In this document: piece by piece, positions 2,053-4,811 of the stretch
Position numbering within the stretch: position 1 is the stretch's first letter
Layout of the letters: every line of letters starts with the position of its first letter
DNA from: an uncultured Acidobacteriota bacterium
Lineage (GTDB): Bacteria; Acidobacteriota; Thermoanaerobaculia; UBA5066; Gp7-AA6
Direction of reading: 5' to 3'
NCBI GenBank assembly: GCA_963805495.1
Contig: CAWDUQ010000001.1
Span: 429,409 to 493,408, forward strand
DNA length: 64,000 nucleotides
Program-made: the position numbers and the translations under genes
Notes under the pieces: model-generated
Told to the model about the DNA's origin: nothing
Seen by the model: the letters and a program-made list of their open reading frames with translations, nothing else
The model's database searches: none

Positions 2053-3057
2053 ATGCGATGGAAGGCCGGCACGTTCGGGATTCTCTGCGCGGCGGTGGCC
2101 GCGGCGGCCGACCCGCCGACGCTGCGCTACGTCCCGAAGCACGACGAGCTCAAGTACACGTTCGGCGGCGTGGCCCCGACGCACCGCATCGCGCCGGGAA
2201 CGCGGATCGTCACGTGGACGGAAGACTGCTACGACGGCGCGGTCACGCAGCCCGGGCAGCTCCCGAGCAAGGTCCAACCGGCCGGACACGACAACCCGCA
2301 GACGGGACCGTTCTACGTCGAAGGGGCCGAGCCGGGCGACACGCTCGCGATCCACATCGAGAAGCTCGAGCCGGCCCGCGCCTACGGCATTTCGTCGCAG
2401 TTTCCCGGGTTCGGCGCGCTCTCCGGCACCGACCGCACGGCGGTGCTCCAGCCGGACCTGCCGGAACGCGTCTGGTTCTACGAGGTCGACCGCGGGAAGA
2501 ACGTGGCGCGCACGCGCTCATCCGACGGCAAGCGCTCCTGGGAGGTCCCGCTCGCGCCGTTCCTCGGCTGTCTCGGCGTGTCGCCGCCGTACGGCGAGGC
2601 GCGGTCGACGATCGTCCCCGACAACTTCGGCGGCAACATGGACTGCCCGGAGGTGCGCGCCGGCAACACCGTCTACCTCGGCGTGCGGGTCCCGGGAGGG
2701 CTGCTCTCCTTCGGCGACGGGCACTACGCGATGGGCGACGGCGAGATCATCGGAACGGCGATCGAGGGGGCGATGAACGTCGAGCTCGTCGTCGAGCTCA
2801 TCAAGGGCCGGGAGACGCCGTGGCCGCGGATCGAGAACACCGACTGGATGATGTCGCTCGGCGCCGCGCGGCCGCTCGAGGACGCCGCCCGCATCGCGTT
2901 CAAGGACATGGTCCAGTGGGTCATGGAGAAGAGCGGCCTCGACGAACTGGACGCTTACCAGTTCGTCTCGCAGAACGCCGTCTCCCCGGTCGTCGAGATG
3001 GTCGACCCCCTCTACACCGTCCTCGTCAAGATCCCCAAGGCCCGCCTCCCGAAATAG
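2053..3057 (+). CDS. Acetamidase/formamidase family protein with signal peptide
   Basis: GGAGG RBS; motifs NPQTGPFYVEGAEPGDTL, PDNFGGNMD, GDGHYAMGDGEI-GTAIE. Confidence 0.9.
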   Translation: MRWKAGTFGILCAAVAAAADPPTLRYVPKHDELKYTFGGVAPTHRIAPGTRIVTWTEDCYDGAVTQPGQLPSKVQPAGHDNPQTGPFYVEGAEPGDTLAIHIEKLEPARAYGISSQFPGFGALSGTDRTAVLQPDLPERVWFYEVDRGKNVARTRSSDGKRSWEVPLAPFLGCLGVSPPYGEARSTIVPDNFGGNMDCPEVRAGNTVYLGVRVPGGLLSFGDGHYAMGDGEIIGTAIEGAMNVELVVELIKGRETPWPRIENTDWMMSLGAARPLEDAARIAFKDMVQWVMEKSGLDELDAYQFVSQNAVSPVVEMVDPLYTVLVKIPKARLPK

Positions 3058-3060
3058 TCG

Positions 3061-4093
3061 GGGGTCAGGTCTCGATTTTTCGGTTTTGCGCGACCGCCTG
3101 TCCCGTGTCGCGACAATTCATTTGTGATGGCTCGTCCCTTGCGACTCGAACACGCCGGAGCGCTGTGGCACGTCACCAGCCGGGGCAACGAGCGTCGGCG
3201 CATCTTTCGCGATGCTTGCGACCGCAGAGTCTTCCTGAGCGTCCTCGCCGACGCGATCGGCCGGTACGGGTGGCGCCTGCACGCTTACGTCCTGATGGGG
3301 AACCACTACCACCTTCTCGTCGAGACGCCGGAGGCGAACCTCTCGGACGGCATGCATCGGCTCAACGCCATCCATTCGCAGCGGTTCAACCGGAGGCACG
3401 GGCGCGTCGGGCACCTGCTGCAGGGGCGTTTCAAGGGAATCCTGGTCGAGAAAGAGCGCCACCTCCTCGAACTCGTCCGATACCTCGTGCTCAACCCGGT
3501 CCGGGCCGGCCTGGTCCCCACCGCGGTGGAGTGGCCCTGGAGCAACTTCCGGGCGACGGCCGGCCTGTCACCGTGCCCGACGTGGCTCGAAACGGAATGG
3601 ACGATTGCGCAGTTCGGCGGCGGCGCCGCGGCGCGCGAAGCCTATCGCGAGTTCGTGACGGCGGGCGCGGCCGTCGTCGACCGTCCGTGGAGACGGATTG
3701 CGGGACAACTGTTCCTCGGTAGCGACGAATTCCGCCGGCGGATGCGGGGGATGCTCGCGGCACAGGCGGTCAGCAGGGAAGTGCCTCTCGCGCAGCGCCG
3801 GGCGATCCGACCGGACCTTTCGGACGTCGTGCGCGCATCGGCCAGGGTCCTGGGCACGGATCCCTCGCAAGTCATTGAGCGCGGGTGCACGGCGCTGCGA
3901 CTGGTCGTGGCCTACGTGGGTCGTCGCGATTCCATGGCGAAGCTGGCCGACCTCGGATCGACGCTGGGTGTCTCGACGACGTCGGCGCATGAGATCTGCG
4001 CCTCGGCCCGCCGGTTGAGCCTTTGCGAGCCCGAATTCCGGGACCTCCTGAAGCGCGTCCGCGCGGAGATCCGAAAAATCCAGACCTGACCCC
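3061..4093. mobile_element. Y1-transposase element bounded by 23-bp inverted repeats
   Basis: GGGGTCAGGTCTCGATTTTTCGG (3061-3083) versus reverse complement of 4071-4093 GGGGTCAGGTCTGGATTTTTCGG (22/23). Flanking direct repeat 3043-3058 / 4103-4118 (15/16). Confidence 0.7.
3127..4089 (+). CDS. HUH Y1 tyrosine transposase (RAYT / IS200-like) with C-terminal HTH
   Basis: MARPLR...WHVTSRGNERRRIF, HUH motif NHYHLL, GHLLQGRFK, catalytic RYLVLNPVRAG, WPWS; C-terminal helical region resembles a DnaA_C-like HTH. Confidence 0.9.
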   Translation: MARPLRLEHAGALWHVTSRGNERRRIFRDACDRRVFLSVLADAIGRYGWRLHAYVLMGNHYHLLVETPEANLSDGMHRLNAIHSQRFNRRHGRVGHLLQGRFKGILVEKERHLLELVRYLVLNPVRAGLVPTAVEWPWSNFRATAGLSPCPTWLETEWTIAQFGGGAAAREAYREFVTAGAAVVDRPWRRIAGQLFLGSDEFRRRMRGMLAAQAVSREVPLAQRRAIRPDLSDVVRASARVLGTDPSQVIERGCTALRLVVAYVGRRDSMAKLADLGSTLGVSTTSAHEICASARRLSLCEPEFRDLLKRVRAEIRKIQT

Positions 4094-4133
4094 ATATGAT
4101 TTCGCCTCCCGAATTAGTAATGTCGCCGCCGCC

Positions 4134-4811
4134 ATGAAGATCTGGAAGAAGCTGCTGATCGGGCTCGGAGCGGTCGTGGTGCTCGCCGCGGCCGCGTTCA
4201 CGTACATGGTCGGCGGTCCGCGCAGCGTCATCGGGATGCTGCGCTACGACCAGCGCGAGGAGGGGACGCTCCGGGTCGGCGACCGGGCGCCGGACGTGGG
4301 CCTCATCGCGCTCGACGGCTCGACTCCCGTCCGGCTGGCGAGCGAGCTCGGCGGGAAGCCGACGGTCCTGATCTTCGGCAGCTTCACCTGACCTCCCTTT
4401 CGCCGCTCGGTCGAGCGGGTCCTGGCGATGCGAAAGAGGTACGCCGACCACGCTCGATTCGTGACCCTGTACATCAAGGAGGCGCACCCGCTCGACGAGT
4501 GGCAGATGGACTCGAACGTGGACGAAGGCGTCTGCTACCCGCAGCCCGTGAATCTCGGAGACCGCCTGAGGATCGCCAACGACTTCGTCCGGCGCTTCCA
4601 TTACGACATCCCGCTCTACGTCGACCCGATCGAGAACCCGGCCAACGCGGCCTACGCGGGCTGGCCGGAGCGCCTCTACGTCGTCGACGAAGGCGGCACG
4701 ATCGTCTACAAGGGCAAGCCTGGCCCCTTCGGCTATCACCCGGAGGAAGTCGAAGCCTGGCTCGCGAAGCGGTTTCCCGACGTCAGCGCTCCGCCGGCGC
4801 CGGCATCCTGA
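4134..4811 (+). CDS. Iodothyronine-deiodinase-like thioredoxin-fold selenoprotein (in-frame TGA 4389-4391 = Sec)
   Basis: ORFs 4023..4391 and 4428..4811 share a frame. Read-through gives KPTVLIFGSFT-U-PPFR...LYIKEAHPLDEW...YAGWPERLYVV...YKGKPGPFGY, matching the deiodinase FGSxTUPPF motif. N-terminal TM segment. Confidence 0.85.
4391..4440 (+). promoter_or_regulatory. Candidate bacterial SECIS hairpin
   Basis: Stem CCGCTC (4403-4408) / GAGCGG (4413-4418), loop GGTC starting 17 nt after the TGA; bulged lower stem ACCTC..TTTCG / CGAAAGAGGT. Confidence 0.6.

Follow-up and report, generated by a model that had tools for sequence, protein, structure and literature searches.

Organisation of the locus

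The window analysed here is the whole 64,000-nt stretch of DNA, and the locus of interest lies between an acetamidase/formamidase-family gene and a deiodinase-like selenoprotein gene. Its features, in window coordinates, are as follows:

2053–3057, + strand: acetamidase/formamidase-family gene, the upstream host gene (Pfam FmdA_AmdA, E 1.2e-24)
3043–3058, + strand: left direct-repeat copy, CGCCTCCCGAAATAGT, which includes the acetamidase stop
3061–3083, + strand: left terminal inverted repeat (TIR), GGGGTCAGGTCTCGATTTTTCGG, the first 8 nt of which match the published TIRYT motif GGGGWSAS
3124–4089, + strand: TIRYT (RAYT-like Y1 HUH tyrosine transposase) gene, 321 codons from GTG 3124
3304–3312, + strand: HUH motif H-Y-H, in the transposase gene
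3481–3483, + strand: tyrosine of the YxxxNP motif, in the transposase gene
ca. 3808–4086, + strand: C-terminal DnaA-domain-IV-like HTH (residues ca. 228–320), by predicted fold
4071–4093, − strand: right TIR, which codes for the transposase end R-K-I-Q-T and the TGA stop
4094–4102, + strand: AT-rich tail of 9 nt, ATATGATTT, separating the right TIR from the right direct-repeat copy
4103–4118, + strand: right direct-repeat copy, CGCCTCCCGAATTAGT
4134–4811, + strand: deiodinase-like selenoprotein gene, the downstream host gene, with an in-frame TGA at 4389–4391

The deiodinase-like gene matched Pfam T4_deiodinase (E 1.7e-33) with its TGA read as Sec. The last codons of the acetamidase gene (L-P-K-stop) fall in the left direct-repeat copy, where the TAG stop occupies 3055–3057.

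The encoded transposase

The originally predicted combination of a Y1 HUH transposase and an HTH at its C-terminus was borne out by a Pfam Y1_Tnp match (E 5e-10) and by a DnaA-like C-terminal domain in the predicted fold. Homologues, of which the search returned more than 4,400, begin at the position of ATG 3127, corresponding to a protein of 320 aa. Residues H60, H62, Y119, N123 and P124 were invariant in an alignment of 13 homologues. The protein passed the NCBIfam model for REP-associated tyrosine transposases (NF047646; 84.7 bits, cut-off 80), and close homologues are labelled RayT by JGI. A profile built from the 13 homologues matched TnpArep (4er8; E 0.0026) and, weakly, DnaA (E 0.16), and the best Foldseek match of the predicted model was again TnpArep (4er8_A; E 4.2e-5).

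The pLDDT of the model was 64.6 overall and above 90 in the C-terminal 90 residues. The C-terminal domain superimposed on the DnaA DNA-binding domain with a TM score of 0.84 (3pvp_B; rmsd 1.5 Å, 93 columns) or 0.75 (1j1v_A). Pfam searches of the whole transposase gave no match to the C-terminal domain at E 0.01 or better and no Bac_DnaA_C, and searches of the C-terminal half gave only a sub-threshold HTH (HTH_AsnC-type, E 0.0025, below its cut-off). The DnaA-like assignment thus rests on the predicted fold.

The Y1_Tnp domain, together with a fold similar to the TnpA of IS608 and ISDra2 (E about 1e-3), could suggest an autonomous insertion sequence of the IS200/IS605 type. However, the best sequence and fold matches were to RAYT/TnpArep, and the NCBIfam IS200 model scored 16.6 bits (cut-off 55). 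Moreover, the genome carries a single copy of this lineage, the remaining matches being paralogues of 31%–39% identity, its ends are not subterminal hairpins and tnpB is absent. We therefore consider an IS200/IS605-type identity extremely improbable.

Ends of the element

The 23-nt inverted repeat was confirmed, with 22 of 23 positions identical between 3061–3083 and the reverse complement of 4071–4093 (GGGGTCAGGTCTGGATTTTTCGG); in a repeat search the pair stretched to 43 nt at 81% identity (3050–3092/4062–4104). The family motif GGGGTCAG lies at 3061–3068 and its reverse complement at 4086–4093. As predicted, the last codons and TGA stop (4087–4089) of the transposase ORF lie inside the right repeat. 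The stop falls within the right repeat in all orthologues, and TGA followed by CCCC marks the gene end in 22 of 62 wider homologues. Among the homologous loci analysed (62 of 79 fetched), GGGGWSAS was present in inverted orientation on both sides in 42, and the gene-carrying units measured 1009–1177 bp. The window contains two copies of the 12-mer GGGGTCAGGTCT, compared with a shuffle mean of 0.29.

The single ends are non-palindromic, as had been claimed: as single-stranded DNA they folded no better than shuffled sequences (z −1.39, 0.12 and 0.28). A candidate hairpin at the ends, in which the outer CCGAAAAA pairs with the inner TTTTTCGG, was dropped as a general feature, the folding of ends with their flanks being not significant; the outer motif is frequent in the repeat family of the source genome, but among 84 unit flanks from relatives just two contain it. 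TAG was enriched just beyond the repeat end (14 of 38 units versus a background of 2.3%) and is no fixed part of the repeat. The inner-repeat DNA reads TCGATTTTTCGGATTT.

The tail at 4094–4102 is probably part of the right end of the element. It is kept as (A/C)TATAATTT(CGG) in the orthologues of G024, G014, G003 and G002, and it imperfectly mirrors the left flank, CCGAAATAGTCG. Similar spacers (TTATTTTT and GGCCTTTCGG) were present in both other cases of a direct repeat described below.

Dispersed repeats and their association with the gene

The original prediction had named an abundant dispersed motif as evidence against itself, and the count gave exactly this: 39 exact copies of GGGGTCAGGTCT in the source genome, compared with none of the reversed control, and 26–111 in relatives carrying the gene. 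Most of the 39 copies are held by 18 short hairpin-forming doublets of 57–91 bp, the arms of which are headed by the 23-mer of the left TIR with no more than three mismatches; the family further includes the gene-carrying unit and five single or degenerate units. Doublet folding was strong (z −9.96 and −8.87).

Short Logan contigs of four soil-metagenome runs were used as a check on mobility. One contig of 680 nt (run X2) crosses the left junction with no differences, and none in the four runs spans the right direct repeat. The single "joint", from 3085 to 4071 with 22 letters between, was rejected as an excision product, because its loose ends match the flanks of C1:423693, a paralogous 70-bp doublet.

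In 13 of 25 genomes of the genus, 26–111 copies of the 12-mer were found, and 12 of these 13 repeat-rich genomes carry the transposase gene at the orthologous locus (10 intact and two frameshifted). The other 12 genomes have 0–7 copies and no orthologue of 49% identity or more. The exception is G009 (85% complete, 400 contigs), in which 35 copies but no TIRYT were found. Since the two broken genes belong to genomes with 70 (G013) and 111 (G014) copies, a currently intact gene is not needed for repeat abundance. Across lineages the 12-nt terminus was invariant, while the inner part of the repeat co-varied with the gene lineage, which makes predictions of the cleavage site and of HTH specificity testable.

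These features resemble a classical RAYT/REPIN system, in which a domesticated REP-associated tyrosine transposase is accompanied by GTAG-tagged palindromic REPs. The passed RAYT equivalog model, the RayT label of close homologues, the single-copy gene with dispersed hairpin-forming doublets and the co-occurrence of gene and repeats across the genus (G009 excepted) are all in line with this identity. In contrast, individual repeat units are non-palindromic and bear the GGGGTCAG terminus in place of a GTAG foot, and the protein, at 321 aa, is twice as long as TnpArep (165 aa), with the extra DnaA-like domain. Elsewhere in the source genome (C1:195813), true GTAG palindromes accompany another, short RAYT-like gene, and this shows the two kinds to be distinct. 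A classical RAYT/REPIN identity thus appears very improbable, although the choice between this name and TIRtron is largely a matter of naming, as the element works like a RAYT/REPIN system.

Turnover of the locus

The anticipated acetamidase–deiodinase junction without an insert was found in G005, G006, G008, G012, G016, G021, G022, G057, G059, G043, G053 and G052, and the position directly behind the acetamidase stop codon is unoccupied in roughly half the genus. In relatives where it is unoccupied, the C-terminal tail of the acetamidase varies beyond L-P. Occupied and empty genomes were interspersed in the flank-gene tree, where well-supported branches force at least three changes. In G007 the cassette is discordant with that of G000, the flanks being 91% identical and the gene only 69%. 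The nearest relative of the source genome, G024, has flanks about 90% identical to it. These patterns indicate that the cassette has been gained, lost or exchanged several times at this locus. An alternative source of both presence/absence and allele exchange could be homologous recombination between the conserved genes on either side, instead of transposition. G023 and G004 have 1.1-kb inserts at this position, which were set aside: they lack TIRs and contain an unrelated ORF (about 330 aa) on the minus strand.

The direct repeat

The two direct-repeat copies are identical at 15 of 16 positions and, as first described, are offset from the inverted repeats by 2 nt (left) and 9 nt (right); merging them places the acetamidase stop 16 nt before the selenoprotein ATG at 4134. 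Scored as length minus twice the mismatches, the repeat reached 14, compared with at most 10 when unrelated flanks from this repeat family were cross-paired (342 pairings). The repeat is therefore real, but the proposal that target duplication is a feature of the element did not hold. Among 11 orthologous occupied loci only that of the source genome has the repeat, which is missing at the orthologous position in the 10 relatives carrying the cassette. The flanks of homologues, which the original prediction had singled out for inspection, showed no direct repeat in any of the 42 wider homologues having both ends. Direct repeats above the null were present in 2 of 19 repeat-bounded units in the source genome and in a single one of 39 independent doublets from relatives (three units of one tandem array set aside). 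Their lengths varied (16, 17–18 and about 37 nt), and they were offset from the ends. A target-site duplication of fixed length does not abut most copies.

These results bear directly on the idea of a previously unrecognised class of Y1 + HTH transposon that, unlike other HUH elements, has TIRs and generates a target-site duplication of 16 bp. In its favour, all three features (TIRs, HTH and direct repeat) are real, and two more repeat-bounded units have long direct repeats in a similar layout. Nevertheless, the repeat is absent from 10 orthologous cassettes, from 42 of 42 homologues, from 17 of 19 units of the genome itself and from 38 of 39 doublets of relatives, its lengths are inconsistent (16, 17–18 and about 37 nt), and the TIRYT/TIRtron is already in print (PMC3733652; PMC6006769). 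A new class is accordingly very improbable.

One further case was informative. The doublet C4:486585 has a direct repeat of like geometry, with offsets of 3 and 8 nt, and its site is empty in G014, G016 and G003 with one copy of the duplicated sequence, which indicates a true target duplication. At the locus studied here, an empty site matching the collapsed repeat (CGCCTCCCGAA(A/T)TAGTAATGTCGCC) was found in none of the 43 other genomes of the genus with up to three mismatches. The same search gave two matches, in G019 and G050, which lie elsewhere in the genome and are unrelated; the nearest empty site, that of G057, differs in the acetamidase tail.

We read the 16-nt direct repeat as a sporadic target duplication of variable length that accompanied or followed insertion, not as a fixed, enzyme-made target-site duplication. 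A reasonable alternative, to which we give somewhat less than even weight, is a secondary local duplication unrelated to insertion (e.g., by template switching during replication close to the hairpin-prone ends), an event in the source lineage long after the arrival of the cassette. G024, which is nearest to the source genome in the flank tree as well as the gene tree, and G014 match it at the left junction (TCG|GGGG) and in the right tail (ATATAATTTCGG) yet lack the direct repeat. The failure of any empty site in the genus (0/43) to equal the collapsed sequence points the same way. However, what follows the right copy (AATGTCGCCGCCGCC and then ATG) has no counterpart on the left and resembles native intergenic spacer, as at the empty sites of G005 and G006; a plain insertion with duplication is the simpler account of this. 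The same geometry at C4:486585, where three relatives are empty with one copy, also argues against a secondary event. With regard to the origin of the repeat, the state of G024 would fit a secondary duplication as well as a fresh insertion.

It is also conceivable, though unlikely, that TIRYT insertion does not always follow the scar-less "peel and paste" of IS200/IS605, and that a minority of events leave duplications of 16 to about 37 bp. In this arrangement the 8–10-nt AT-rich right tail of the element sits between. If true, this would imply that the target is double-stranded or gapped and is broken with a wide stagger, or that the element is copied in by template switching at a replication fork. 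The cassette of the source genome would then be freshly re-inserted, and a "domesticated" single-copy gene would still be an autonomous transposon.

Interpretation and comparison with known systems

The element is of an already known but little-studied kind, and the direct repeat is a rare local oddity, not its hallmark. The whole is very probably best explained as a TIRtron at 3061–4102 with REPIN-like passengers, repeated turnover of the locus and a sporadic direct repeat. The original interpretation thus survives in its Y1 domain, HTH, non-palindromic TIRs and empty site, whereas the novelty of the class and target duplication as a property of the element do not. In this reading, the TIRtron comprises one TIRYT gene between TIRs of about 23–27 nt beginning GGGGTCAG, and the approximately 18 head-to-head doublets of this Thermoanaerobaculia-type Acidobacteriota genome behave like REPINs, as non-autonomous passengers of the single-copy transposase. 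By homology to TnpArep and the IS200/IS605 TnpA, the TIRYT may cleave and rejoin single-stranded DNA at the GGGGTCAGGTCT terminus; the doublet hairpin would be the likely substrate, and the HTH may help to recognise the inner repeat sequence, which is lineage-specific.

TIRYTs are numerous, yet just two publications in the literature searched name them, and neither puts them to the test. The value of the present case lies in a well-documented example of a TIRtron with rare, unexplained flank duplications. The genus also offers a clean natural experiment: at one and the same locus some sister genomes have the cassette and others do not, and the dispersed doublets are present or missing accordingly.

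With IS200/IS605 elements (IS608 and ISDra2), the source element shares the Y1 HUH fold, the lack of a regular target duplication and, probably, cleavage of a single strand at a conserved terminal sequence. It differs in being not multi-copy, in having TIRs and in lacking subterminal hairpins and tnpB. The likeness to RAYT/REPIN systems, as exemplified by E. coli TnpArep (PDB 4er8) and the Pseudomonas REPINs (Bertels and Rainey 2011; PMC3116915), is closer: a single-copy Y1 gene, its own repeats inverted around it, doublets folding into long hairpins and repeats confined to gene-bearing genomes (here except G009). Unlike those systems, the source repeat is no GTAG-footed palindrome, the protein has the extra DnaA-like domain and the doublets number about 20 in the source genome rather than hundreds.

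The TIRYT/TIRtron was named, with the TIR motif GGGGWSAS, by Di Nocera, De Gregorio and Rocco (2013; BMC Genomics 14:522; PMC3733652), and that paper describes a sharply defined Acidobacteria group and no obvious correlation between gene and repeat. Quentin et al. (2018; BMC Genomics 19:475; PMC6006769) placed TnpA-Y1 proteins with Bac_DnaA_C/HTH-like C-termini in subclass 2.1, with Bac_DnaA_C, HTH_23 and HTH_28 as relatives of the C-terminal HTH; they found this subclass in 14.9% of strains, and no REP-like repeats near its genes. Contrary to the "distinct class" initially proposed, the architecture described here is the same as that in these two publications. Common to the published group and the present element are a RAYT-like Y1 protein roughly double the length of TnpArep with a Bac_DnaA_C-type HTH, long non-palindromic GGGGWSAS TIRs flanking the gene, the 3′ TIR overlapping its end, and a moderately abundant TIR family dispersed as singles and dimers. 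There is no difference in kind from the TIRYT/TIRtron. To knowledge of this group, the present analysis adds the genus-level co-occurrence of the gene and TIR doublets (with the exception of G009), empty sites and cassette exchange at one locus, and rare long duplications of the flanks.

Ends and neighbours of the cassette

The cassette, comprising a Y1 transposase gene and its bracketing terminal inverted repeats (TIRs), lies between acetamidase and deiodinase-like genes. The inverted and direct repeats of the original prediction, together with their coordinates, were borne out by sequence reading (2400–4800) and a repeat search (2900–4300). The direct repeat scored 14, against a maximum of 10 in a null of 342 cross-pairings between flanks that belong to different, unrelated copies of the TIR repeat.

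Features of the cassette locus (window positions; both repeats from the search of 2900–4300)
Upstream: acetamidase/formamidase-family gene (Pfam FmdA_AmdA), TAG stop inside the left direct-repeat copy
3043–3058 / 4103–4118: direct repeat, 15/16 identical, left offset 2 nt, right offset 9 nt
3050–3060: example of a TAG-bearing outer flank
3061–3083 / 4071–4093: inverted repeat, 22/23 positions identical, extending to 43 nt at 81%
3124–4089: transposase ORF, TGA stop inside the right inverted-repeat arm
4134–4811 (downstream): deiodinase-like predicted selenoprotein, in-frame TGA at 4389–4391, motif FGSFT-U-PPF (T4_deiodinase, E 1.7e-33, TGA read as Sec)

Transposase protein and its paralogues

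The product (321 aa) carries Pfam Y1_Tnp at residues 15–100 and matched NCBIfam NF047646 ‘REP-associated tyrosine transposase’ over residues 7–140 (84.7 bits, curated cut-off 80); the NCBIfam IS200 model was not passed (16.6 vs. cut-off 55). There are more than 4,447 homologues of comparable length, several of which are named ‘RayT’ by JGI. In an alignment of 13 homologues with 50%–100% identity, H60, H62, Y119, N123 and P124 were invariant, and the derived profile matched E. coli TnpArep in the N-terminal half (4er8, E 0.0026) and, weakly, DnaA at residues 223–311 (1l8q, E 0.16). The AlphaFold model was poor overall (pLDDT 64.6), with values > 90 at residues 230–320. Using Foldseek against the PDB, the best match was 4er8_A (E 4.2e-5), followed by IS200/IS605 transposases, and the C-terminal domain resembled DnaA DNA-binding domains on DnaA boxes (3pvp_B, TM 0.84, rmsd 1.5 Å over 93 columns), with 1j1v_A as a second such domain (TM 0.75). 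These family, profile and fold matches therefore confirm the predicted ‘Y1 + HTH’ architecture.

Outside the window, this genome (G000) encodes three paralogues of the TIRYT type (RAYT-like Y1 transposases with TIRs; 37%–39% identical) at C2:1350465–1351319, C1:41304–42098 and C2:77409–78236, each with CCCC after its terminal TGA stop. An inverted repeat of its own, 36 nt long and starting with GGGGTCAGCCC, flanks the first paralogue; an upstream inverted-repeat partner was not found for the other two. Three copies of a classical GTAG-footed palindrome (GTGTGTAGGGGCGGGG-TTCA-TCCCCGCCC) lie within the ca. 150 nt downstream of a separate short RAYT-like gene at C1:195813–196208 (31% identity across 132 residues); thus, G000 holds a classical REP system in addition to TIRYT systems.

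The TIR repeat family

In the G000 assembly (4.44 Mb, 6 contigs, 69% G+C), the 12-mer GGGGTCAGGTCT that begins the TIR occurs 39 times, compared with 0 for the reversed control. Paired units comprise 18 short convergent doublets (57–91 bp), in which two TIR-like units are paired head to head without a gene, and the 1033-bp gene-carrying unit; five further units are single or degenerate. According to the original prediction, an abundant dispersed REP would refute its reading, and the motif proved to be such a repeat. As single strands, doublets form long hairpins (z −9.96, −8.87), and single ends showed no such folding (z −1.39, 0.12, 0.28).

TAG occurs just outside the TIR ends, within 7 nt or overlapping the first Gs, in 14/38 unit flanks in G000 and 15/84 in relatives (background: 2.3% of random genomic 10-mers). 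This enrichment may reflect a target preference placing insertions directly behind stop codons. CCGAAA(A) is also common 4–7 nt outside the end in the G000 family.

Distribution and origin of the direct repeat

The direct repeat was read originally as resembling a target site duplication (TSD), and as a property of the element this was unsupported. It is absent at 10 other occupied orthologous loci; at the nearest, in the congeneric genome G024, the right side reads CCCC|ATATAATTTCGGGTGG|ATG. In G024, G014, G003 and G002, the 9-nt tail that separates the right TIR of G000 from its right direct-repeat copy is conserved, which argues that this tail belongs to the element's right end. Direct repeats exceeded the null in only 2/19 units in G000 and in 1/39 independent doublets in G009, G019, G015 and G011 (42 scored, three belonging to one tandem array).

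One such unit is the G000 doublet at C4:486585–486672, flanked by a repeat of 14 nt exact, or 17–18 nt with one indel (left offset 3 nt, right spacer TTATTTTT). Its counterparts in G014, G016 and G003 are empty sites with one copy of the repeated sequence, which shows that target sequence was truly duplicated here. A doublet in G011 (L116) has a flank repeat of ca. 37 nt, a left offset of 4 nt and a right spacer made up of GGCCTTTCGG and a local tandem duplication of 17 nt. Because the lengths vary, the direct repeat is not an enzyme-set TSD. At the G000 cassette, it may have arisen through a fresh re-insertion with duplication or through a later local duplication. The collapsed sequence had been proposed as the empty site; none matching it was found in 43 other genomes of the genus, the closest being that of G057 (acetamidase end 91% identical, gene tail different).

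In G015, three TIR doublets lie head-to-tail (L098, C13:20223–20789) with a 138-nt period of a 91-nt doublet and a 47-nt spacer (46/47 identical); this array is a tandem amplification of doublet plus flank. Among other doublets of that genome (L099–L108), ca. 22 nt left and ca. 15 nt right outside GGGG...CCCC are conserved among copies (AGTCGGGCCTGCGCGCTTCGAT ... GAGCACGGCATCCGG). The G015 mobile unit is asymmetric and exceeds the doublet in length.

Occupancy within the genus

The cassette occupies the acetamidase–deiodinase locus in G000, G024, G007, G014, G018, G003, G019, G002, G011, G013, G015 and G010 (genes frameshifted in G013 and G014); G056 and G042 are probable further carriers. The junction without the insert, sought following the original prediction, was present in G005, G006, G008, G012, G016, G021, G022, G057, G059, G043, G053 and G052 (stop-to-start 10–25 nt), and also in G017 based on HSP spacing. 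The junction is a variable spot. In G023 (L056) and G004 (L057), it carries an unrelated minus-strand, lipoprotein-like ORF of ca. 324–336 aa.

Among the first 25 genus genomes, 26–111 copies of the 12-mer were found in 13, namely the 12 with the cassette and G009, and 0–7 in the remaining 12. No TIRYT was found in G009 (85% complete, 400 contigs). In the low-copy genomes G006, G008 and G012, matches at E ≤ 1e-30 were paralogues only (35%–47% identical), and the unpublished genome G030, on which no conclusion depends, had 0 copies and no orthologue. The initial 12 nt of the repeat do not change between families; its inner part varies between genomes and co-varies on both sides of the gene.

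In a phylogeny built from both flanking genes, empty genomes were intermixed with occupied ones, with at least three changes forced by branches with SH-aLRT ≥ 95. The gene tree was discordant with the flanks at G007, whose flanks share 91% and 89% identity with those of G000, against 69% for the gene. Therefore, the cassette has been repeatedly gained, lost or exchanged, by transposition or by homologous recombination through conserved flanks. A second TIRYT gene (ca. 50% identical) lies ca. 19–20 kb from the first in G019 (C14:88758), G018 (C2:2027811), G002 (C1:264035) and G013 (C13:186363), and is absent at this distance in G000.

Wider homologues and proposed mechanism

A total of 79 related loci were retrieved, mostly from Acidobacteriota, Thermoanaerobaculia and Holophagales MAGs, with a minority from Nitrospirota, Desulfobacterota, Zixibacteria and Verrucomicrobiota. 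We analysed 62, leaving out 17 (L152, L154, L156–L158, L160, L161, L182, L183, L187–L192, L194 and L196), in most of which the match was well below the full protein or a contig end was near. GGGGWSAS was inverted on both sides at 42/62 loci (units 1009–1177 bp, inverted repeats mostly 19–30 nt), and a flanking direct repeat above the null was found in 0/42 of these (observed maximum 10, null maximum 11). The stop was TGA followed by CCCC in 22/62; at other loci, the same end motif is read in a different frame, giving a C-terminus of ...DLTP.

From its homology to TnpArep and IS200/IS605 TnpA, the Y1 domain would be expected to cleave single-stranded DNA at the invariant end, GGGGTCAGGTCT, and to join it again. 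Its substrate is probably the doublet hairpin, and the lineage-specific inner repeat would probably be read by the DnaA-like HTH.

Comparison with known systems

RAYT-like genes with long flanking TIRs unrelated to GTAG REPs have been described as TIRYTs, and the gene with its TIRs as a TIRtron (Di Nocera et al. 2013, PMC3733652). According to that paper, TIRtrons share the motif GGGGWSAS, TIR families are moderately abundant as singles, dimers and clusters, and an Acidobacteria group is singled out; neither ‘target site’ nor ‘duplication’ occurs in this text. Quentin et al. (2018, PMC6006769) placed 20/26 TIRYTs in subclass 2.1, long proteins with Bac_DnaA_C/HTH_23/HTH_28-like C-terminal domains, near whose genes these authors found no REP-like sequences. 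In a full-text literature search, ‘TIRYT’ and ‘TIRtron’ were found only in these two papers and the preprint of the latter. Given these descriptions, the G000 element is of a known kind: the original prediction of a distinct class of Y1 + HTH element read the architecture correctly, and the class itself is not new, as the cassette belongs to the already published TIRYT/TIRtron kind.
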